Source: a virus (Duplodnaviria > Heunggongvirae > Uroviricota > Caudoviricetes). Taken from it: DNA of 25,925 nucleotides. Position numbers and translations under genes: made by a program. The notes under the pieces are model-generated. The model ran no database searches, was not told the DNA's origin, and saw nothing but the letters and a program-made list of their open reading frames with translations. The DNA lies in the IMG/VR virus record IMGVR_UViG_2917403263_000005; one strand, 5' to 3'. Positions 268 to 25,029 of this stretch are shown piece after piece (the first letter of the stretch is position 1; each line of letters starts with the position of its first letter).

Positions 268-302
268 AAGCCCTCTCTGTTTGAGGGCTTTATTGATTTT
301 TT
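268..302. terminator. hairpin plus T-run between convergent grxA and ybjM
   Basis: Perfect 8-bp inverted repeat AAGCCCTC (268-275) / GAGGGCTT (283-290) with 7-nt loop, followed by T-rich run tattgatttttt (291-302). Lies right after the grxA stop and overlaps the ybjM stop. Confidence 0.5.
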
Positions 303-667
303 CTGTGCTGTGACTTGAACAAACTACTAATAAACAAGAAACACAACGCTCCCAACGCACACCAGAAGACGGCGCTCAATAACCACGCCAGCTCTTGCCA
401 GAATGAGCGTGTTGGTGAAAAAAACAGACGCATAATTAACATAGAACACGGTGCCGCCAGCATTGCGCCAAACAGCGGTTTAAGGACTTCTCTACGCTGC
501 GAAAAAAAGCTGGCAACCGCCCCAGGAAGAATGAAAAACAGCAAGCCGATTTCAGGATGCCCGGCAGCCCGAAAAGCGCCTTTCATTTGCGTCGCCAGGA
601 ACAGGCACACTACAATGAAGAGGACAAAACAGCAGATTGCCCCCGCCCAACGTTGTTTATGTTTCAC
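290..667 (-). CDS. ybjM: inner membrane protein YbjM
   Basis: 125-aa ORF, GTG start at 667, hydrophobic throughout (MKHKQRWAGAICCFVLFIVVCLFLAT...). Matches the small membrane protein found between grxA and ybjL in E. coli-like genomes. Confidence 0.85.
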   Translation of the reverse strand: MKHKQRWAGAICCFVLFIVVCLFLATQMKGAFRAAGHPEIGLLFFILPGAVASFFSQRREVLKPLFGAMLAAPCSMLIMRLFFSPTRSFWQELAWLLSAVFWCALGALCFLFISSLFKSQHRKNQ

Positions 668-934
668 TCGCTCCTCCTGACACTGCCTCTATCGAACACA
701 TTTTCGCCACTATGGCGTTCAGTAAGATAAAGCCGCTTCGCATTCCATGCTAATATAGGCCAACGCAATTTTTATAGCCGTTGGTACTTAATGTGATTAC
801 ACTAGTAAAATATATTGTTTCTTTACTATTGCTTATGTGCGCTGAATGAATCCGCGCCCTGATTTCAGGTAAAAACATTATCTTAAATTACCATTTCTTT
901 CAACAGCTTACTCGTAAACAAGAAGTTAGTCTCC

Positions 935-2620
935 GTGAATATAAACGTCGCCGAATTGTTAAATGGGAATTACATTCTGTTATTATTTGTAGTCCTTGCG
1001 CTTGGACTATGTCTAGGAAAATTACGACTTGGTTCAATCCAACTGGGTAATTCCATTGGCGTTTTAGTCGTATCGTTACTATTAGGGCAACAACATTTCA
1101 GCATTAACACCGACGCGCTTAATCTTGGCTTTATGTTGTTTATTTTCTGCGTCGGGGTCGAAGCCGGACCCAACTTTTTTTCCATTTTTTTCCGCGATGG
1201 GAAAAATTACCTAATGTTAGCTCTGGTGATGGTTAGCAGTGCGCTGGCGATCGCCTTAGGGTTGGGTAAGCTGTTTGGCTGGGATATCGGTCTGACGGCC
1301 GGTATGTTGGCTGGCTCCATGACATCGACACCGGTTCTGGTCGGTGCTGGCGACACATTACGCCATTCCGGTATGGAAAGCGGACAGCTCTCCACAGCAC
1401 TGGATAATCTAAGCCTTGGGTATGCGTTAACTTATTTAATCGGCCTGGTGAGTTTAATTGTCGGTGCACGTTATTTACCGAAGTTGCAACATCAGGATTT
1501 ACAGACCAGCGCCCAACAAATCGCTCGCGAACGTGGCCTGGACACCGATGCCAGCCGAAAAGTTTATTTGCCGGTGATCCGCGCCTACCGTGTCGGCCCG
1601 GAGCTGGTGGCCTGGACCGACGGCAAAAATCTGCGTGAATTGGGTATTTATCGTCAAACTGGTTGCTACATTGAACGTATTCGTCGTAACGGGATTCTGG
1701 CAAATCCGGATGGCGACGCCGTGCTGCAAATGGGCGATGAGATAGCGTTAGTGGGATATCCAGACGCCCATGCCCGCCTCGATCCCAGCTTCCGTAACGG
1801 TAAAGAAGTTTTTGATCGTGACCTTCTCGACATGCGTATCGTCACTGAAGAGGTCGTCGTCAAAAACCATAACGCGGTAGGTAAACGTCTGGCACAACTG
1901 AAGTTGACCGATCACGGTTGCTTCCTTAACCGCGTCATCCGCAGCCAGATTGAGATGCCAATTGATGACAACGTTGTGCTTAATAAAGGTGATGTTTTAC
2001 AGGTGAGCGGCGATGCCCGTCGCGTGAAAACCATTGCTGACCGCATCGGCTTTATCTCGATTCACAGCCAGGTCACAGACCTGCTGGCATTCTGCGCGTT
2101 CTTTGTTATTGGCCTGATGATCGGGATGATCACCTTCCAGTTCAGTACATTTAGCTTCGGCATGGGTAACGCTGCTGGCTTGTTATTCGCCGGCATTATG
2201 TTGGGCTTTATGCGCGCTAACCACCCGACCTTCGGTTACATTCCGCAGGGGGCGTTAAGCATGGTGAAAGAGTTCGGCTTGATGGTGTTTATGGCAGGCG
2301 TTGGTTTAAGCGCCGGTAGCGGCATTAATAACGGCCTGGGCGCGATCGGTGGTCAGATGTTAATTGCCGGATTGATTGTCAGTCTGGTGCCGGTGGTTAT
2401 CTGCTTCCTGTTCGGCGCTTATGTACTGCGTATGAACCGCGCACTCCTGTTCGGCGCGATGATGGGCGCGCGTACTTGTGCTCCGGCAATGGAGATCATC
2501 AGCGACACCGCACGCAGTAACATCCCAGCTTTAGGTTATGCGGGTACTTATGCAATAGCTAACGTACTGCTAACGCTGGCCGGGACAATCATTGTCATGG
2601 TATGGCCAGGACTCGGATAA
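935..2620 (+). CDS. ybjL: putative AAE-family transporter YbjL
   Basis: 561-aa ORF, GTG start at 935. Two hydrophobic membrane halves separated by a soluble central region, the known YbjL architecture; N-terminus [20 protein letters not shown] as in E. coli YbjL. Confidence 0.9.
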
Positions 2621-4750: not shown

Positions 4751-7700
4751 GCGTCGTATCCCCCCTGATCGCTGTAGTTACTCCTGGCTTTTGCCTTCAG
4801 CCTGCGTTCACGTTCATCAAGCTGGCGGGCCACCTCCCGCGCAATATCCTGCGCACTTTGTCCTGGCTGCGTCTGAATGATGATCTGCGTCGGTGCCTCA
4901 ATCCGTTGAACGGGCGGCACAGTGGCTGCACGACTCACCATCGCTTCGCCGCCTTTCGCGGGAAGTGCCAAAGGATGCAACGGTGGAAGCTCTGCAGGCG
5001 CGGCAGCAACGCCCATCATTCCGGCAACAACGGCAGCCAGTGCAGCTGTATTTCTCCGGCTGGTCACGTTTGCCGGGCCGTTAACAATTTCCGGCCCGTT
5101 TTCACCGACGATGCCAAACTGCCCGCGCGGGATATAGCCGCCGCTGTCATACATCCCCGCAAAGCCATATCCCCATGACGGAAAACCACCCGATGGCATC
5201 ATCACTTTACCGTCTGCATTCACCGTCGCAGGTTGCTGACGCGTCACGCTTTCCGGCAGTTTCGCCTTTGCAGCCTCTTTACTGACAATGCCGAGTTTAT
5301 CCAGCAACCAGGAAACGCCAGATTTCAGGGAGTCCAGCGGATGCATAACCATATTCAGCCCTTCCGCCAGTGCCTCCCCGAATCGTCGCCCCATTGCCGC
5401 TGCGCTCTGCAGTTCGGCAGAGGTCGACTTAACGGGCGTCAGCAGATCAGTAAACCAGCCCCACAGCGCCTGTACTTTGTCGCCAATCCACTGAAACACA
5501 GGCTTAAGTGGTTCAAATGCAGCACTGATGGGACCTGCCGCCGCTTTGAATCCCTCCACCACGCCATCGAGAAATGCGGTGATGGGTTGCCAGTATTTCC
5601 AGACAACCAGCGCCACGCCTGCCAGTGCAGTAACCACAAGACCTATCGGACTGAGCAGAGCACCTAACAGACCAGATATGGCATACAGGGCAACGCGCAG
5701 CATCGCCAGTGGACCAGATGCCAGTACTCGCAACACCGTGCCTGCGGCGGTCAGTCCACCGCGCAGTACCGCCAGAGGATTCATAAACATCACAGCAACA
5801 GCACGTAAACCGGATAATCCAGACCGCAAAAGTGCAACCGGCGCACCTGCTACAGTTTTCAGGACATTTCCCGTCAGTGATGCCGTGCGGCGCAAAGACG
5901 ACAACGGCGCAGTAAGTAAACCCGCAGCATTGCCCGATGAAGCAAGCCCGCGTCGCAGCAGTGCCAGTGGTGCGCCAGCCAGCCAGGACAACGCGTTGCT
6001 GGTTCGAGTTACTGCTGCCGTAACGGAAGGTAACGTTTTGATACCCAGCACAGAGAATCCCAGACGGATCACTGCCAGCGGCCCCAGCACTGCAGCCAAC
6101 ACTACAGCCAGGGTGCCGAGGCCCACGGTAACAGCAGCCACAACCGCTGCTACTTTCATCAGTGTGCCCGTCAGTTCCGGGTTAGCTTCCACCCAGCGAC
6201 GCAGCGCCCCCGTGACGCTTTTTACCGTGTACAGAATATCCATCAGCGGCTGGCGCAGCGTTTCGCCCAGGCTGCTGAAGGTGTTCTGCGCTCCGGTTTT
6301 GACCAGCAACCACTGAGCAGAAAGTGAATCCTTGTTGATGTCGGATTCTTTCTGCATGGAACCGAGCGCATCATTGCCCGCTGTCAGTTTTAGCTGGCGC
6401 TGCAGTTCCGGCAGGTTGTTTGCCAGTTTCGCCGCGTCATCGCCAAACTCTTTACCAAACAACATGGTCATGGCAGACAGTCGCTTATCCTGCGGCAGTG
6501 CATTCACCTTCTCCAGCACACGCTGGATAGTTCCCATCGCATCCTTCGTCATCTGCTTTTCAATCACTTCAGGATTAAGTTTCAGCAGATTCATTCCTTC
6601 GAAGAAACTCTTACTTTGCATGGTGGCAATGGACAATTCACGCACCATCGCGTTTGCTGCACTGGCTGCAACCTCCGGCGCAGCGCCCAGTGTCAGGAAG
6701 GTGGAACCCAGCGCCGCCGCTTTACGATAATCCAGACGGTCAGCCACACCGCCCAGACGTTGCATAACATCGATGATGTCCGCCCCTTTCGACATGGCGT
6801 TATCATCCAGATAGTTCAGCGCATCGCCGAGCTGTTCAATATTGCGGGTAGGGATTTTGTAGAGCTGGGCGATTTTCCCCAGACTTTCTGACAGTTCATC
6901 CGCTGGCAGCTCAAAGGCTGTTGCCGCCTTTGCCGCCGTACTGGCGAAGGCCAGCAGGTCACGTTTCTGGTCTTCCCAGCTGTCGTCAGGGTTTGCGACG
7001 TTCATGCGCGCCCCACCTTCAACCAGTGCAGCGAAATCCACCGCACCGTTTTCCATCGGCAACTGTTCGCTGGCAGCCTTGATGGCATCCTGCATTTCGT
7101 AAAAACGCGCAGTGCGGTTGCCATTATCGTCACGCAGACCATTGACCTGCTTTGCCACACCTTTCATGGCATCTTCCATGCTGGTATAGCTTTTTACTGC
7201 CGCCATCACTGGTGCGCCCATTGCCAGCCCTGCCGCCGTGGTGGTGGCTCCGGCTCCTGCAATACGATCGCGCACCTCCAGCGAACGGGCATAACTGGCA
7301 CGCGCCGCATTCATCCTGCGCTGAGCTTCCCCCAGTCGCTTCAGCCGCGCCTCCTGTTTCGACAATTCCTGGTTATAACGTGATGTTTCACGGGCTAAAC
7401 GGGCAGTTGCTCCCGCATCATCTTTCGCAGAAATTCCCGCCCGGTACAGTTCTGCACGCACAAGCGCCGTTTGCTTCTGCAAATATTTTTGTTGTTCTTC
7501 CAGGCGTTGGACTGCCAGCGTTTGCCGACCTAAAGCCACAAGGTGCCGTTGTGATGGTTGTTCCATCGCCTCCAGCTCAGAGCTAAGCAAATTAGCCTTC
7601 TGTCTGGCATAGTTCAGCCTGTCGCCTAACTTCTTGTTATCGGCCTGCAGCTTGCGAAATTTTTCCAGGCTGTTACCCGCCTGATTGAGTTGCTTTAATG

Positions 7701-10236: not shown

Positions 10237-11421
10237 TTATTTCTGTATTCTCACTGCCATTCTTTTTTGCACATCAAAAAATTTATTAATCACTCCATTG
10301 CGATTAATAAATGGATATTCTATACCTTTAAAAGTCATATAAGCGATAGTCACAACAATTGGCGACAACATCAGAATTAAATATGCGTATGAATTATCAC
10401 TCAAATTTCGCACATACGCCTTCCCGAGTAAAACATCTAAAGTAAAATATAGAACAATCCCGTGCATTAGATAGATACTATATGATATCTCACCAAAGAC
10501 TCTGGAGATTTTCAACTTTAACACACCAAATAGATCACATCCATTTACGATCAAAATAAATATAGCGCCGATCAATAAAATTGGCAGGTAATCAAACGAG
10601 TGAGGGAAGTAAAACAACGAAAAAACGAAACCTGAAACACACAAAAACGATGTCAATTTCAAAGATGCAACTTTTAAGATTAATTTATTACCTCGTACTG
10701 CTGAAGCTAAAAAGCCACAGGCGAATGGCAGCAAAAAGATGTAATTTAAGTTGAGGTAATTAAACGCATATAAGCTAAATGCAGGGATAACTAGCACAAA
10801 GATATTTTTGGTTCTTCTCAAAGCAAATGCAATGAGCGGTAGAGAAAAATAGAATAACCACTCATACACAAGCGTCCAATAAATACCAGCATATATATAA
10901 CCAGTATCACTAAATCCATTTATATGTGAATTACCATAAGTTGCATATATCATCCATGAAAGAATGGATTCAATTAGTTCACCTGCACTTACATTGAGTT
11001 TCCAGCCTGTTTTATATCCTATGATAAATAATGCAATTAAAAGCGAGAACATATACAGAGGATATATTCTAAAAATTCTTGATTTGTACAACGAGAACCA
11101 ATTTATTTTTTTTGAATCAATTATTTTAGAAAAAAACAAATACCCCGTTATCATAAAGAAAATCATAACGGGTAATTGCCCTGCATTCGCAAATACATGA
11201 CTTGAAGGTAAAGACCATTCATTTGTTTTTATAAAGTGATGCCATATATAAGAGTGATGCAGAAACACTAAGAAGGCCAAATACCCTCTTAATCCATCAA
11301 TATTAACGTTCCTACCTTTACCTTCAATTGGTAGCGGGCTTATTTTATCAAGAAAATACAATATGGCGATAGCTGCAAATATAGCAGCTACTATTAACAT
11401 AGGGCTATTATAAATTAACAT
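10237..11421 (-). CDS. acyltransferase-3 family integral membrane protein (putative O-antigen/LPS O-acyltransferase)
   Basis: 394-aa ORF, ATG at 11421 with AAGG 9 nt upstream. Polytopic hydrophobic protein with the N-terminal AT3 signature NIDGLRGYLAFLVFLHH (DGLRG...H). Two sampled 60-nt lines gave about 32% and 40% G+C, against about 52% in a sampled line of the flanking sheath gene. Confidence 0.8.
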   Translation of the reverse strand: MLIYNSPMLIVAAIFAAIAILYFLDKISPLPIEGKGRNVNIDGLRGYLAFLVFLHHSYIWHHFIKTNEWSLPSSHVFANAGQLPVMIFFMITGYLFFSKIIDSKKINWFSLYKSRIFRIYPLYMFSLLIALFIIGYKTGWKLNVSAGELIESILSWMIYATYGNSHINGFSDTGYIYAGIYWTLVYEWLFYFSLPLIAFALRRTKNIFVLVIPAFSLYAFNYLNLNYIFLLPFACGFLASAVRGNKLILKVASLKLTSFLCVSGFVFSLFYFPHSFDYLPILLIGAIFILIVNGCDLFGVLKLKISRVFGEISYSIYLMHGIVLYFTLDVLLGKAYVRNLSDNSYAYLILMLSPIVVTIAYMTFKGIEYPFINRNGVINKFFDVQKRMAVRIQK

Positions 11422-12386: not shown

Positions 12387-13771
12387 TACAGCTCCACCCC
12401 CCCCCCTTTTGCGGTAACAACGTCACCAAATGCTGAACTTCCCCCTGTCGCCCCCGGCATTGCACTGGCTCCCGTTCCTCCGTACCCAACGGTAACCGTT
12501 GTTACTACCGGATGGTCTATGCGGGCTTTAACGTATTCTCCCGACATTCCCCCTCCGCCGCAGGCAGCATTGCCCCCTGTACCGACCTGGCATCCGCCGC
12601 CAGCGCCACCACCGCCAACCACTTCAACAATCGCAAACTTTATACCTGCAGTTGGCGTATATGTCCCGGAGGCTTTGAACACCTGACATTTCACCAGTCG
12701 GCCTGTTCCGTCGCCAAGCCCAAGGTATGTGAGAAGACCAGCTACATCCTTTCCACTCAAATTAGTCAGCGTATTATCCAGCGGTTGTTTTCCCGCCAGT
12801 GCATTAAGCATTGTCGTGGCAAAGTTCGGGTCATTCCCCAGCGCCGCCGCCAGTTCGTTCAGCGTATCCAGTGCCGCAGGTGCAGAACCCACTATTGCTG
12901 CAATCGCCGATTTCACAAAAGCCGTGGTGGCAATCTGTGTATTGTTGACCGACTGTGCCGCAGTCGGTGCTGTTGGCGTTCCGGTGAATGCCGGACTCGA
13001 CAGCGGCGCTTTCAGTGCTAACGCATTGTTAATGGTGGTGCTGAATTTCGGATCATTGTTAATGGCTGCGGCTATTTCTTTCAGCGTGTCCAGCGTGGCT
13101 GGCGCACCATTAATAAGAGCCGTCAGTGCCGCCTGAACAAACGCAGTGGTCGCAACCTGCGTGGTATTATTCCCCGCCGCTGGCGTTGGCGCTTTGGGTG
13201 TTCCGGTAAACGTCGGACTTTCTTTGGGTGCATACTGTGAATGCGGGTCCAGTGCGGCAAGATGTTTTGCCATCTGATCATCCGCGTACACCTTCAGCTC
13301 CAGTACCTTATCATCCACATACTTGCGAGTCGCCAGTACTACAGCAGGGTCGATTGTCAGGGTGATATTGTCCGTACTACTGGTAATCAGCACCATACGC
13401 ACGGTCTGGGTACGCCCGCTGCCTTCAGCCAGTTGCGGCTTATAGCTTTCCGGGCAGTTGCCCACGGCAATCAATGCCCCGGATTCATCAAACAGGCCCA
13501 CTTCACGTATCCACCAACCGCCCTCGTTTTCAGGGATCACCTGTTCAGCAATAATCTGGCTGCTGTTCTGCGGGTCGATATAGAGCATATTCAGCGCAGC
13601 CCGGCGTTTCTCATTTACCAGTGCAGTCTGCTTTGCGTCCGGCGTTGGCAATGTCCCGCCGCCATCGCCGACCGCCATATGGGTAATTTTTAAAGGCACA
13701 CCGAGCGCGGCGGCGCTGGCAAGTTTCGCCGCGCCAATATCCGTCAGCAGGGTATAAAATTTTGTGCTCAT
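12386..13771 (-). CDS. H: tail fibre protein H (N-terminal baseplate-binding part plus repeats; apparently truncated at a G10 tract)
   Basis: 461 aa. N-terminus MSTKFYTLLTDIGAAKLASAAALG is P2 gpH-like. Two tandem ~70-aa repeats (SPTFTGTPKAPT...NALALKA and SPAFTGTPTAPT...NALAGKQ) followed by a Gly-rich C-terminus. ATGA overlap with the I stop. Confidence 0.85.
   Translation of the reverse strand: MSTKFYTLLTDIGAAKLASAAALGVPLKITHMAVGDGGGTLPTPDAKQTALVNEKRRAALNMLYIDPQNSSQIIAEQVIPENEGGWWIREVGLFDESGALIAVGNCPESYKPQLAEGSGRTQTVRMVLITSSTDNITLTIDPAVVLATRKYVDDKVLELKVYADDQMAKHLAALDPHSQYAPKESPTFTGTPKAPTPAAGNNTTQVATTAFVQAALTALINGAPATLDTLKEIAAAINNDPKFSTTINNALALKAPLSSPAFTGTPTAPTAAQSVNNTQIATTAFVKSAIAAIVGSAPAALDTLNELAAALGNDPNFATTMLNALAGKQPLDNTLTNLSGKDVAGLLTYLGLGDGTGRLVKCQVFKASGTYTPTAGIKFAIVEVVGGGGAGGGCQVGTGGNAACGGGGMSGEYVKARIDHPVVTTVTVGYGGTGASAMPGATGGSSAFGDVVTAKGGGVEL
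12397..12406 (-). repeat. homopolymeric G10 tract (C10 on plus strand) at the 3' end of tail-fibre gene H
   Basis: Counted directly: plus strand ccaCCCCCCCCCCtttt. On the coding strand it reads GCA AAA GGG GGG GGG GTG GAG CTG TAA. Confidence 0.9.
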
Positions 13772-15274: not shown

Positions 15275-15620
15275 TCTCTGCTCCTGTTGATACGGAAAGG
15301 GAAACAGGCACACCGTTATTACGCCGCCCGGTCAGCTCCACCACCATTGAACCGTCAAAATCGCTGTTGATGGTGATGGAATCCAGCGTCAGCCGTGGCT
15401 CCCAGCGACTCAGCGCCACATACACTGCCGACATGACCTGCAGGCGTAACGCCGAATTTTGTGGCTGATCTATCAGTGCCGACAGCAGGGAACCATATTC
15501 CCGGCGGGCAATGCGGCTACCCTGCGGCGTCAGCAGAATGTCCCGCACTGACTGGCGCAGATGGTCAATATCAGTAATGGTCTTGCCCGTTGCGCTGTTC
15601 ATGCCGTAATACATCGTCAT
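15261..15620 (-). CDS. W: baseplate wedge protein W (gp25-like)
   Basis: 119 aa; MTMYYGMNSATGKTITDIDHLRQSVRDILLTPQGSRIARREYGS matches P2 gpW; ATGA overlap with the V stop. Confidence 0.85.
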   Translation of the reverse strand: MTMYYGMNSATGKTITDIDHLRQSVRDILLTPQGSRIARREYGSLLSALIDQPQNSALRLQVMSAVYVALSRWEPRLTLDSITINSDFDGSMVVELTGRRNNGVPVSLSVSTGAENGSD

Positions 15621-16195
15621 ACCGGGCCTCCCGATGTGTCGCCGCCAGACTTCACTTTATTGTGCGCGTGGTCATCCACCACGATCTCGTTGGAACTCAT
15701 CGGGCCGCCGCCCTGAGTCACACCACCGTTGATCACCACCTCACTGTTAATACGGGTGGTGTCGGCTTCCACGATAAACTCCCCGGTTTTGAAGGTGACG
15801 TTATCCACCGCCTCGATCACCATGGATTTAATACCCCGAACGTACCAGCGCCCGATTTCGGGGTCGTACTCAAACCAGCCGCCGTCCGGGTATTCCGTCA
15901 CGTTGCCGTCCTCAGACCTGGACGGCGGCGGAAACTGGTTTGAATAGACGGCAGGCAGGGCAAAGGCGGTTTCCAGATTGCCGCCCAGGCTGAACAGCAC
16001 AACCTGCTCCCCCACAGACGGTTTCCACCAGGTGCGCGAGTTGCCCGCGCGCAGCGTCAGCCAGTTAATCCAGTTGGTTTCAAGCTCACCCGTTTTCACC
16101 CGGCACAGCCAGTTGTCCCGGTCCACTGCCGTTACAGTTCCGGTGCGGATTAGGTTGGTGATAAGGCGCATGATTTCTGTGAGTTGTGCGTTCAT
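15617..16195 (-). CDS. V: baseplate spike/assembly protein V
   Basis: 192 aa; MNAQLTEIMRLITNLIRTGTVTAVD...RSEDGNVTEYPDGG is P2 gpV-like; ATG at 16195. Confidence 0.85.
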   Translation of the reverse strand: MNAQLTEIMRLITNLIRTGTVTAVDRDNWLCRVKTGELETNWINWLTLRAGNSRTWWKPSVGEQVVLFSLGGNLETAFALPAVYSNQFPPPSRSEDGNVTEYPDGGWFEYDPEIGRWYVRGIKSMVIEAVDNVTFKTGEFIVEADTTRINSEVVINGGVTQGGGPMSSNEIVVDDHAHNKVKSGGDTSGGPV

Positions 16196-16251
16196 AGCTA
16201 TAGATTGCCATGAATGATGTATCTAAGAACAAGGTGAGCTTAGTCTGGTCC

Positions 16252-16279
16252 ATGACACAATTAAGAATTACTATATAAA
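16252..16279 (+). promoter_or_regulatory. candidate sigma70 promoter for the V-S cargo gene
   Basis: ATGACA (16252-16257), 16-bp spacer, TATAAA (16274-16279), about 30 nt upstream of ATG 16310. Hexamers read by eye in an AT-rich region, so this is weak. Confidence 0.3.
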
Positions 16280-16309
16280 AATTGTTAACTACTTGGTTGA
16301 GAAACAAAC

Positions 16310-17137
16310 ATGAAAAATAAGAACCAGTATCAGGCTTTACTTAGAGGGAAGGTCGAATCGGCGATTGCTCAAGCCAAAAGTGCTGCAGGATTTTCCCACC
16401 AGGGTGTTAAGGGAGCTGTTCTAGAAATATTATTAAGTCAACTATTTCGACCTCTTTTGCCCGCAGATGTTGGCATTGGCACAGGGCAAATCATTGAACA
16501 GTATTCAGGAAAGTTATCACCTCAAATAGATATTATTATTTACAATAAATCAATACTCCCTCCGATATTAATCGATGGTGCCACAGGGTTATTCCCAATA
16601 GAATCAGTTCTATATACCATTGAGGTAAAAACCACATTAAGCTCATCGGAACTCAGCTCTGCACACTCAAGTGCAAAAGAACTTAATGAGAAATTCGGTT
16701 ACTTACCTGGAATAAAAGATGAATCAGGCAAACTAATCCAACACAAAATAGAGAAACTTCGCTCGGTAATATTCGCTCTAAGTAGCGACTTATCACCAAA
16801 TGGAATTACTGAAGCCGAAAGGTATAAAAAAATATACAAAGAAGACTTTCGTTACGTTACAGCAATTTGCGTTGCAGGTCGTGAGTATAGTTATGAAGAT
16901 CGAGATTGCTGGGTAACAATGCGTAATACTCAAGCGTATGATGAAATCCTTGCATTTATTGGAGGCATAACCAATACATATAAAGGTGTTTCAGAAAGTC
17001 GTGGGACACCATTGCTAGGATATTACATTGTTCCAGAGAATGTCGAACTGAGCCTTACAGCTTGTACCACACTCCCGGAATTGCAAGTTAAGTGCACGCA
17101 ATGCGCTGAAACTAAAAAAAATAATCCCCACCTTTGA
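16310..17137 (+). CDS. uncharacterised PD-(D/E)xK-like nuclease-fold protein with C-terminal CxxC (cargo gene, frame as called)
   Basis: 275-aa ORF on the strand opposite all flanking late genes. Restriction-endonuclease-like motif pattern E39 ... D74 (PQIDIIIY) ... E105-x-K107 (YTIEVKTT). C262-x-x-C265 near the C-terminus. AT-rich: two sampled lines gave about 27% and 38% G+C. I cannot assign it to a named family. Confidence 0.6.
   Translation: MKNKNQYQALLRGKVESAIAQAKSAAGFSHQGVKGAVLEILLSQLFRPLLPADVGIGTGQIIEQYSGKLSPQIDIIIYNKSILPPILIDGATGLFPIESVLYTIEVKTTLSSSELSSAHSSAKELNEKFGYLPGIKDESGKLIQHKIEKLRSVIFALSSDLSPNGITEAERYKKIYKEDFRYVTAICVAGREYSYEDRDCWVTMRNTQAYDEILAFIGGITNTYKGVSESRGTPLLGYYIVPENVELSLTACTTLPELQVKCTQCAETKKNNPHL
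17114..17121 (+). repeat. A8 homopolymer at the point where the cargo ORF changes frame
   Basis: Counted directly: actAAAAAAAAtaat (17114-17121). In frame it reads ACT AAA AAA AAT AAT CCC CAC CTT TGA. Confidence 0.9.
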
Positions 17138-17297
17138 CAACGATGATGAACTAATACTAAAAAACTACACTATTACTGATAACAAGCCTTGTAAATGTGG
17201 TGGGGAATTTAAATCAGAAAAAGGTAATTTCACCATTAAAAATGGTCGACTGAGAGAAATAGAGTACAACGAGCCAGCTCGAATTTACAAAGAGTAA
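17136..17297 (+). other. out-of-frame coding continuation of the cargo gene (+1 frame, no start codon) carrying the second half of a zinc ribbon
   Basis: Open frame ...DNDDELILKNYTITDNKPCKCGGEFKSEKGNFTIKNGRLREIEYNEPARIYKE ending at TAA 17295-17297, 15 nt before the S stop. It has no ATG/GTG/TTG start of its own. Its CKC pairs with the upstream CTQC to give CxxC-x33-CxC. Confidence 0.55.
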
Positions 17298-17311
17298 ATA
17301 TAACGAAGGAA

Positions 17312-17758
17312 TTAAGGCCTTAGCCATTTATAAACGACAGATGCAATTTCATCTTTGTCAGATGAAGTAAAACCTAGTAACAGCCGCTCCGCATAACGTA
17401 CCTCTGGCCCCCGGCGGCTTACACGATCGAGCAGACCGTAATGGTGAACACGGGCAATACGCTGCACCTTGCCTTCAAACTGTACGCTGGCAGAGTCGGC
17501 GCTGGCGGCAGTTTTCAGGTATTTTGTGGTGCGCAGCTTTGCAAACATCTGACGTTTGATGCGCCCCTTTTTACTGCGTGCTGTTACCCGTCGCGGTTCA
17601 TAGCTGCTGCCGTCAGGGTTGCGCTGCATCCTGATATTCTGCTGCTGTGTCCGGCGCAGTTCCTGCGCCAGCTGACGCATCATGCGAATTCTTGCGGCTG
17701 GCTCCAGATTCGCCAGCAAGGCACTCAGCCAGTCGTCCACTTTCTGCAGTTCAGCCAC
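17312..17758 (-). CDS. S: tail completion protein S
   Basis: 148 aa, GTG start; (M)AELQKVDDWLSALLANLEPAARIRMMR resembles the P2 gpS N-terminus; overlaps the R stop. Confidence 0.85.
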   Translation of the reverse strand: MAELQKVDDWLSALLANLEPAARIRMMRQLAQELRRTQQQNIRMQRNPDGSSYEPRRVTARSKKGRIKRQMFAKLRTTKYLKTAASADSASVQFEGKVQRIARVHHYGLLDRVSRRGPEVRYAERLLLGFTSSDKDEIASVVYKWLRP

Positions 17759-20556: not shown

Positions 20557-21208
20557 TCAGCGGCTGTCATTGCGCAGTCTGCGCTCCAGCTGCTGTTTGT
20601 CTTTTTTCACGCCACAGCGGGGATCGAGCTGTAACGCATGGTTGAGATGATTAAGGGCGGAAGCCGGATTGCTTTCACTCAGGACAGCGCCAATCGCTTT
20701 ATGCAGACGTGCCCGTGACTGGTCCGGCATATCCAGACCGTCTGTCAGCTCCAGCGTCTGCAGCAACAGATCAGCATCAAAGCCGGTGGCGGCAAGCATT
20801 GCGCTCTGCGCTGCGTCTGCCATTTCCTCTGCCAGCACGGTCTGCACGTTGCGGTTACCCAACGGCATCACCCAGCCATGACGCAGGGCGTGACGCCCGA
20901 TCTCCAGCCGCCCCGGCATAATCTCCGGCATCAATGCGCCACAGCATCACGTACATCAGCACGTCATCCTGTTGCGCGCCTCCGGCAGCCAGGACACCCT
21001 CTGCCCAGGCGGCGTATTTCGGCAGCAGTTCCACCTTGATTTCCGCTTTTTTGACCGTGGACTGAACACCCTTGAGACGGCGGCGGTCTTCCGCCAGTTG
21101 CAGCAGCATCAGGTCATAGCCCGACGCGTGGCGAACGCTGCCGCCCTCACGGGCGGCCTGTTCAGCCTGAACGCGCAGGCGATGCTGCCGTGCGGGACTC
21201 AGGCTCAT
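20557..21208 (-). pseudogene. M: terminase endonuclease/small subunit M, interrupted by a 1-nt frameshift
   Basis: N-terminal part (frame A, 21208..20855: ...DDVLMYVMLWRIDAGDYAGA) and C-terminal part (frame B, 20934..20557: LEIGRHALRHGWVMP...GVKKDKQQLERRL) each match consecutive halves of P2 gpM. The join needs removal of one G in GCCGGGGCG-G-CTGGAG (plus strand 20902-20917). Confidence 0.75.
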
Positions 21209-23262: not shown

Positions 23263-25029
23263 ATGAACACCACACTGACACCCGCAGATCTCGATCCCCG
23301 TCGGCAGGCCATGCTGCTGTACTTTCAGGGATACCGCGTAGCCCGCATTGCTGAAATGCTGGGCGAGAAAGTTGCAACCGTTCACAGCTGGAAAAAACGC
23401 GACAAGTGGGGTGACTATGGGCCGCTGGATCAGATGCAGCTCACCACCGCCGCACGCTACTGCCAGCTCATTATGAAGGAGCACAAAGAAGGGAAAGATT
23501 TCAAAGAGATTGACCTGCTGGCGCGCCAGTCGGAGCGCCACGCGCGGATCGGCAAGTTTAACAATGGCGGCAACGAAGCCGACTTAAACCCTAACGTCGC
23601 CAACCGCAACAAAGGGCCGCGCCGTCAGCCGGAAAAGAATGTTTTCACCGATGAACAGATTGAGAAGCTGGAAGAAATCTTCCATTCCTCCATGTTCAAC
23701 TACCAGCGCCACTGGTGGGAAGCAGGAAAAACCAACCGCATCCGTAATCTGCTGAAGTCACGCCAGATCGGCGCGACCTTTTACTTTGCCCGTGAAGCCC
23801 TGATTGACGCCCTGCTTACCGGACGTAACCAGATTTTCCTTTCTGCCAGTAAGGCACAGGCGCACGTCTTTAAGCAGTACATCATCGATTTTGCCAAAGA
23901 AGTCGAAGTGGAGCTGAAAGGCGATCCGATGGTGCTTCCTAACGGTGCCACGCTTTACTTCCTCGGCACCAATGCCCGCACGGCCCAGAGTTATCACGGC
24001 AACCTGTATCTGGATGAATATTTCTGGATACCGAAATTTCAGGAGCTGCGCAAAGTGGCTTCCGGTATGGCTATTCACAAAAAATGGCGACAAACCTATT
24101 TTTCCACGCCATCCAGCCTGACCCACAGTGCTTATCCGTTCTGGTCCGGTGCGCTGTTCAATCGTGGGCGCAACAAAGCCGATAAGGTGGACATCGACCT
24201 GTCCCACAACAATCTGGCCCCCGGCCTGCTGTGCGCAGACGGGCAATACCGCCAGATAGTCACCGTGGAAGATGCGGTGCGCGGCGGCTGTAACCTGTTC
24301 GATCTCGACCAGTTGCGCATGGAGTACAGCCCGGACGAATACCAGAACCTGCTGATGTGTGAGTTCGTGGACGATCTCGCGTCCGTGTTCCCGCTCAGCG
24401 AGCTGCAGGCGTGCATGGTGGACAGTTGGGAAGTCTGGACCGACTTTCATGCACTGGCGCTGCGCCCGTTTGGCTGGCGCGAGGTTTGGATCGGTTATGA
24501 CCCGGCAAAAGGTACGCAGAACGGCGACAGCGCCGGATGCGTGGTGGTGGCACCGCCAGCCGTGCCGGGCGGTAAGTTCCGCATTCTTGAGCGTCACCAG
24601 TGGCGCGGGATGGACTTCCGCGCCCAGGCTGACGCCATCAAAAAACTGACCGAACAGTATAACGTGACCTATATCGGCATCGACTCGACCGGCGTCGGTC
24701 ACGGGGTTTACGAGAACGTGAAAGCATTTTTTCCTGCCGTCAGGGAGTTTGTCTACAACCCCAACGTTAAAAACGCCCTGGTACTCAAGGCCTACGACAT
24801 TATCAGCCACCGCCGTCTGGAGTTTGACGCCGGGCACACCGACATTGCGCAGTCATTTATGGCAATCCGTCGCGCCACCACTGCCAGTGGCAACCGCCCG
24901 ACCTATGAAGCCAGCCGCAGCGAAGAAGCCAGCCATGCCGATCTGGCCTGGGCAACAATGCACGCACTGTTTAACGAACCGCTGCAGGGCGAGTCCGCCA
25001 ATACCAGCAATATTGTGGAGATTTTTTGA
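23263..25029 (+). CDS. P: terminase large (ATPase) subunit P
   Basis: 588 aa; MNTTLTPADLDPRRQAMLLYFQGYRVARIAEMLGEK... matches P2 gpP; divergent from O. Confidence 0.9.
   Translation: MNTTLTPADLDPRRQAMLLYFQGYRVARIAEMLGEKVATVHSWKKRDKWGDYGPLDQMQLTTAARYCQLIMKEHKEGKDFKEIDLLARQSERHARIGKFNNGGNEADLNPNVANRNKGPRRQPEKNVFTDEQIEKLEEIFHSSMFNYQRHWWEAGKTNRIRNLLKSRQIGATFYFAREALIDALLTGRNQIFLSASKAQAHVFKQYIIDFAKEVEVELKGDPMVLPNGATLYFLGTNARTAQSYHGNLYLDEYFWIPKFQELRKVASGMAIHKKWRQTYFSTPSSLTHSAYPFWSGALFNRGRNKADKVDIDLSHNNLAPGLLCADGQYRQIVTVEDAVRGGCNLFDLDQLRMEYSPDEYQNLLMCEFVDDLASVFPLSELQACMVDSWEVWTDFHALALRPFGWREVWIGYDPAKGTQNGDSAGCVVVAPPAVPGGKFRILERHQWRGMDFRAQADAIKKLTEQYNVTYIGIDSTGVGHGVYENVKAFFPAVREFVYNPNVKNALVLKAYDIISHRRLEFDAGHTDIAQSFMAIRRATTASGNRPTYEASRSEEASHADLAWATMHALFNEPLQGESANTSNIVEIF

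Follow-up and report, generated by a model that had tools for sequence, protein, structure and literature searches.

The DNA analysed here, referred to as the window, is a stretch of 25,925 nt that is an exact substring of contig PDID01000004.1 (50,414 nt, of which it forms the last 25,925 nt) from assembly GCA_004745145.1 of Escherichia sp. E3659. Its genes follow the order of a P2-like prophage. They run tape measure, E, tail assembly chaperone, tube, sheath, an acyltransferase cargo gene, G, H, I, J, W, and V; after V come a further cargo gene, S, R, the lysis genes, X, L, M, N, O, P, and Q. The cargo gene after V, which is the subject of this study, is the sole gene between gpV and gpS and lies on the strand opposite to both. 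The slot is made up as follows:

15617–16195, minus strand: gpV (baseplate spike, PF04717), left border of the slot.
16196–17311, no strand assigned: AT-rich insert with 34–43% G+C vs 56–60% in the flanks, matching the P2 orf30 moron slot between V and S.
16310–17297, plus strand: the whole cargo gene; minus one A it encodes a 328-aa DUF6602 protein, a NucC-fold nuclease with a C-terminal four-Cys module.
17312–17758, minus strand: gpS (tail completion, PF05069), right border of the slot, convergent with the cargo gene.

The slot that orf30 occupies in P2, between V and S, is reportedly covered in the review by Christie and Calendar. The insert has the properties of a P2-like moron, being a non-structural, compositionally foreign gene placed between gpV and gpS. 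V–S is the third classical moron slot in P2-like phages and is occupied by orf30 in P2 (PMC6823313). Scanning for promoters and terminators up- and downstream of the cargo gene returned nothing convincing.

Two other parts of the window also bear on the prophage setting. A second cargo slot, at the P2 Z/fun position, holds an AT-rich gene for a 394-aa Acyl_transf_3 protein (10237–11421, minus strand) flanked by the tail-fibre assembly and sheath genes, and this gene contains a T8 run (11106–11113) and an A7 run (11130–11136). Towards the left end, ORFs of 125 aa (290–667, minus strand) and 561 aa (935–2620, plus strand) are equal in length to the YbjM-like and Asp-Al_Ex (YbjL-like) transporter genes, which sit just beyond gpD and ogr in other P2-like lysogens. 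Because the lengths and order of these ORFs match the genes found past gpD and ogr elsewhere, the left part of the window (290–2620) probably holds the prophage–chromosome junction; ORF size and order are the basis for this reading.

As read, the cargo gene is interrupted at an A8 tract, the sole A run of eight or longer in the whole window. The ORF that starts with ATG at 16310 ends with TGA at 17135–17137 and encodes 275 aa with the C-terminus ...CTQCAETKKNNPHL. It ends in ...CTQCAETKK followed by NNPHL, that is, five aberrant codons past the tract and then the stop. The +1 frame, whose codon starts are divisible by 3, is open from 17049 to the TAA at 17295–17297 and reads ...KKIIPTFDNDDELILKNYTITDNKPCKCGGEF...RIYKE; its translation is ...KKIIPTFDNDDELILKNYTITDNKPCKCGGEFKSEKGNFTIKNGRLREIEYNEPARIYKE. 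From 17136 onward this frame comprises 54 codons including the stop and contains no ATG, GTG, or TTG, and it is absent from the ORF list. Its stop lies 14 nt short of the end of gpS. The features around the break are:

16310–17137, plus strand: ORF as read, 275 aa ending KKNNPHL and a stop, identical to TGB88081.1 of Escherichia sp. E3659.
17093–17104, plus strand: first Cys pair, C262-x-x-C265, upstream of the break and invariant in 117 of 117 homologues.
17114–17121, plus strand: A8 tract, one A above the A7 of every close relative; site of the frame break.
17136–17297, plus strand: out-of-frame C-terminal tail of 53 sense codons and TAA with no start, containing C294/C296 and a conserved GG...G..L motif.
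17190–17198, plus strand: second Cys pair, C294-x-C296, downstream of the break and invariant in 117 of 117 homologues.

Removal of one A in silico gave a continuous 328-aa protein. At the local composition, a +1 frame of 53 codons would stay open by chance with a probability of ~ 0.02, and the split-gene pattern is not due to chance because 117 relatives have C-termini homologous to the tail. The original prediction had described the A8 tract, the end of the called ORF, and a start-less +1 frame carrying a second Cys pair, and all of these statements hold. Its further proposals, that a single gene of ~ 328 aa is broken at the A tract and that the break divides a four-Cys module, are borne out: the close relatives have A7 and a single ORF, and C262/C265 lie upstream of the tract and C294/C296 downstream of it.

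The reconstituted protein matched Pfam DUF6602 (PF20247) with 77.1 bits against a gathering cut-off of 27. Among the PADLOC profiles, it matched the Cas-associated PD_DExK profile (6.6e-32) and NucC (7e-14). The nuclease core is located as follows:

16382–16687, plus strand: DUF6602 (PF20247) match, residues 25–126, PD-(D/E)xK nuclease core.
16529–16531 (D74), 16622–16624 (E105), and 16628–16630 (K107), plus strand: catalytic residues, invariant in the alignment of 117 homologues.

An AlphaFold2 monomer model built with 117 sequences had a mean pLDDT of 89.4 and a pTM of 0.84 and was confident through the C-terminal domain. When it was compared with the PDB using Foldseek, the best 14 matches were all NucC (probability 1.0; target-normalised TM 0.65–0.74; ~ 220 aligned columns), and a profile search of PDB sequences also found NucC (E = 8e-12). 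For the C-terminal module, the same PDB profile search gave only insignificant zinc-finger-like matches. No NCBIfam model covered the cargo protein, and PHROGs returned only a weak match to a family of unknown function. The protein is therefore a NucC-fold PD-(D/E)xK nuclease core (residues ~ 1–240) followed by a β-rich module of ~ 80 residues with four invariant Cys. This module is plausibly a zinc ribbon; it probably binds zinc, and it is likely to serve regulation or target sensing rather than catalysis.

The gene is intact in close relatives. The complete genomes of E. coli A41, 442/2, and F719 carry the same insert in the same V–S slot at 99.3% identity, and in each the cargo is one 987-nt CDS annotated as DUF6602 domain-containing protein WP_021515772.1. 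Alignment of the insert to these three genomes required a single gap, located in the A tract, which is A7 in all three. Within the 90%-identity protein cluster, 328-aa forms occur on > 130 contigs (89 + 12 + 11 + 9 + 6 + 4 and further) from E. coli and Salmonella, and the one contig listed in the cluster table for the 275-aa form is that of E3659 itself (TGB88081.1, PDID01000004.1). A contig look-up for the 275-aa protein added one Logan contig (SRR32904615).

More distant relatives gave the same picture. Among 5.8 billion proteins searched, we found 297 homologues, which come from Gammaproteobacteria and Betaproteobacteria. We aligned 117 full-length homologues of 303–364 aa, which cover ~ 96% of the fused query and are 48–70% identical to the cluster representative (itself 98% identical). 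None of D74, E98, E105, K107, or the four Cys varies in this alignment. The KK codons that form the A tract vary among homologues at 50–70% identity; the tract is therefore an accident of codon choice in this lineage and not a conserved slippery site. The original prediction had suggested comparing fused with split homologues, and by this comparison the homologues are fused and the split is not conserved. In the phage collection, megablast with the cargo region gave no match and tblastn gave only two weak partial matches, both to Klebsiella phages. When GTDB representative genomes were scanned with the fused protein, we found only distant N-terminal relatives with 29–40% identity, and the other E3659 assembly was not among the matches.

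We then compared assemblies of the strain itself. TLJ13571.1, also labelled Escherichia sp. E3659 and encoded on a contig of 243,743 nt, is a fused 328-aa protein. It bears the window's own residues I288, T289, and A323, where E. coli has L, S, and D. The gpW sequence of the window was present on only four contigs in the entire collection (two NCBI and two Logan), whereas gpU is too widely conserved to single out sister assemblies. The two Logan assemblies aligned to the window as follows:

SRR8835201: 20,362 nt aligned, no substitutions, and exactly two one-base gaps; the tract is A7, and the extra C at 20908 is missing (gpM 216 aa).
SRR6148330: 13,165 nt aligned, no substitutions; the tract is A7, a private one-base deletion at 23579 breaks gpP, and the extra C in gpM is shared with the window.

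Thus, the tract is A7 in three of the four assemblies of the E3659 prophage, and A8 is private to the deposited contig. The four assemblies differ only by single-base indels in short runs, and in every case the minority state disrupts an ORF found intact elsewhere. SRR6148330 probably holds the reads behind the deposited contig, since it shares the odd gpM insertion of the window; the links between runs and NCBI assemblies are our own assignment. Independent re-assembly of SRR6148330 nevertheless gives A7 despite this shared insertion. A literature search on strain E3659 found no genome announcement stating the sequencing platform.

The gpM and gpP differences are frameshifts in their own right. 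In the window, gpM (the small, endonuclease subunit of the terminase) is split by one extra C at 20908 (CAGC[C]GCCCC), a second frameshift of the same kind:

21208–20855 and 20934–20557, minus strand: the two gpM ORFs, 117 aa and 125 aa.

SRR6148330 also has the extra C; SRR8835201 and E. coli A30 lack it and encode a gpM of 216 aa. The private deletion of SRR6148330 (AAGC[C]GAC, window position 23579) leaves the large terminase gpP in two pieces of 445 and 107 aa and is further evidence of sporadic indels arising from this read set.

A different case is presented by the tail-fibre gene H, which is split at a G10 run (C10 on the plus strand, 12397–12406) into an ORF of 461 aa and a glycine-rich ORF of 106 aa:

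13771–12386 and 12386–12066, minus strand: the two H ORFs, with G10 in both the window and the SRR8835201 assembly.

In E. coli 2018-05-5CC, two T interrupt the G run, there is one base more in total, and a single tail protein of 568 aa is annotated; PCP07083 shows the same one-base-longer match and is annotated "phage tail protein". The H split looks real, the other option being a systematic miscall. Because both read sets agree on it, it appears to reflect real decay under way in the prophage, and it could affect host range or mark prophage decay.

What, then, accounts for the extra A in the cargo gene? We consider it likely that the A8 split is a sequencing or assembly indel and not biology. 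The A8 tract would be a one-base homopolymer over-call in the deposited assembly, and the E3659 gene would really have A7 and form a single ORF of 328 codons. This reading follows from the three same-strain assemblies and the > 130 related contigs in which the gene is intact. It also follows from the pattern of differences between the assemblies: indels with no substitutions, all of them ORF-breaking and none shared by more than two assemblies, have the signature of technical error. True mutation would be expected to bring mostly substitutions, and the indel-only pattern fits technical error instead. From this, we infer that the extra A is technical rather than a variant of the culture. A homopolymer sequencing error was one of the alternatives offered in the original prediction, and it is the one favoured by the A7 of the same-strain assembly and of the two re-assemblies, with the other differences all being single-base indels. 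Relaxed selection past the break was also considered, as suggested by the tail differences from E. coli being non-synonymous in 3 of 3 cases vs upstream differences falling at third codon positions in 4 of 4. We rejected it because the intact E3659 protein has these same three residues and they are in keeping with the family; the tail residues as a whole fit the family as well, and there is no decay downstream.

The leading alternative is a genuine, very recent slippage from A7 to A8, fixed in the sequenced DNA preparation or present there as a sub-population, as with an A7/A8 mixture in the 2017 culture, which we regard as unlikely but worth keeping in mind. Such a mutation would truncate the nuclease after its first Cys pair; it would be inactivating or attenuating, and a costly nuclease might make it advantageous in culture. 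The same additional A has been seen independently: in Logan contig SRR32904615 (1630–1637), A8 occurs on the E. coli allele, in a sequence otherwise identical over 2,528 nt to the three finished A7 genomes. Homopolymer slippage is generally known as the commonest route of accessory-gene inactivation in Enterobacteria, the tail-fibre split in this prophage is backed by both read sets, and homologues of 252 aa that lack the ribbon indicate that a shortened protein can persist. However, of the three strain assemblies with A7, one probably derives from the same reads, as judged by the shared gpM insertion; two to three indels stand beside no substitutions; the tail is without sign of relaxed selection; and defence-gene pseudogenes are rare in P2-like prophages, at ~ 2% of pseudogenes (PMC13586616). 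The original prediction had also named a genuine or phase-variable indel, which is possible but less likely. A contingency switch in which A7 is ON and A6 or A8 is OFF, allowing lysogens to toggle a costly and potentially toxic nuclease, is in our view improbable. Tracts consistent with A6, A7, and A8 do occur among near-identical sequences, each on an otherwise identical background. The A6 case is a fragment, STO18311.1, that ends ...AETKK, from which A6 is deduced. The lengths are, however, distributed very unevenly, with A8 found twice, the deduced A6 once, and A7 on > 130 contigs, a ratio of ~ 130 to 2 to 1. For a contingency locus, seven A make a short run, and the family does not keep the tract, since its KK codons vary. 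In the assembly that gave the A6 case, the gene has several homopolymer breaks besides this one and is apparently also broken at its other A7 tract. The recurrence of A8 and the deduced A6 therefore point to a tract that is error-prone, genuinely slippage-prone, or both. If an A-tract switch did operate, the 275-aa product, like the 252-aa homologues, may be a deregulated form or one of altered specificity, not a dead one.

Programmed recoding, by which +1 ribosomal frameshifting or transcriptional slippage on A8 would yield the full-length protein, had likewise been put forward, and we consider it very improbable. tRNA-Lys is able to re-pair in the +1 frame on A AAA AAA A, and RNA polymerase is generally known to slip on A/T runs of this length, so that some full-length product would be expected if A8 were real. 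Yet close and distant homologues are all fused single ORFs, and neither the split nor the slippery site is conserved. The site has no Shine–Dalgarno-like stimulator and no slow or rare codon or stop, the RNA downstream of the tract is unstructured by RNA folding (z = 0.11), an Rfam search found no element, and a −1 slip meets TAA at once. The fused state of all relatives refutes recoding as an evolved mechanism, and the variable KK codons and the lack of a stimulatory element agree with this.

The 252-aa homologues show that the family does include short members. They form three 90%-clusters, are 62–64% identical over the core, and end cleanly just past the nuclease core. They are located in the V–S slot of Enterobacter hormaechei P2-like prophages (6001–6759 on three contigs) with their stop only 23 nt from gpS, and the whole four-Cys module is absent with no ribbon remnant. 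A stable ribbon-less lineage therefore exists. Its sequences suggest that the nuclease core can work without the four-Cys module; because these natural forms exist, loss of the ribbon need not abolish nuclease function. According to the original prediction, reads confirming A8 together with naturally short homologues would have spoken against a broken gene. Such homologues do exist, and in the same slot, but they do not make the 275-aa form natural: it retains half a ribbon followed by five aberrant residues, and the gene is intact in its own strain. It would be wrong to take the deposited 275-aa protein (TGB88081.1 / WP_135486436.1) for a natural short form, and caution is warranted with draft GCA_004745145.1 since it carries gene-splitting single-base indels.

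As a feature of biology, the frameshift is most probably not real. Experimental work on solo NucC-like nucleases could reasonably take up the gene family. It is widespread and well conserved, and its members, which ride in hotspots of phages and satellites, combine a solo NucC-fold nuclease with a C-terminal module of four invariant Cys; none has been characterised, except possibly Damona. The family could help to show what controls a NucC-like nuclease when no cyclic-nucleotide partner is present, with the 252-aa variants as a built-in comparison. Apart from the V–S slot of P2-like prophages in Escherichia and Enterobacter, family genes were found in a P4-like integrase/AlpA/DUF927 island adjoining smpB in Enterobacter hormaechei, in a cassette-like array with a PhdYeFM/ParE toxin–antitoxin pair in Vibrio diabolicus, and beside a TIR_2 gene in Microbulbifer. 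In every context examined the gene is solo, with no cyclase/CD-NTase, CBASS, or CRISPR neighbour. As a solo moron in the V–S slot, the cargo gene would act as a prophage-borne anti-phage nuclease. Taking fold, context, and one preprint together, a prophage-carried anti-phage nuclease is its most likely role.

The break resembles homopolymer indel errors in draft assemblies and frameshift pseudogenes, in which a one-base change in a run splits a conserved ORF and other private indels are seen alongside; we noted no difference from such cases, and this is an ordinary one. NucC is the cA3-activated endonuclease of type III CBASS and type III CRISPR (PDB 6p7p, 6q1h, 7zgw). The cargo protein shares with it the PD-(D/E)xK fold over ~ 220 residues (TM 0.73 normalised to NucC), and the D...E-x-K catalytic set is invariant in the family. 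In contrast, identity to NucC is only 15–20%, and NucC is without the C-terminal four-Cys domain of ~ 80 aa. Because no cyclase or CRISPR partner was found in the contexts examined, the cargo protein is not a member of a NucC system. The location is like that of P2 orf30, with the same gpV and gpS bounds and one AT-rich gene unrelated to phage morphogenesis (PMC6823313), whereas the slot holds a 261-bp orf30 in P2, a 741-bp ORF in R18C and, here, a nuclease gene of 987 bp that runs on the opposite strand. Damona is a DUF6602 single-gene anti-phage system of the Vibrio cholerae chromosomal integron with reported activity, and outside Vibrio it is reportedly often located in prophages (10.1101/2024.07.02.601686). 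The likeness to it is by description only and consists of the combination of DUF6602 with matches to the Cas PD_DExK and CBASS small-endonuclease profiles, which is the same here (10.1101/2024.07.02.601686). A second point of likeness is that the Vibrio homologues of the cargo family also lie in cassette-like arrays.
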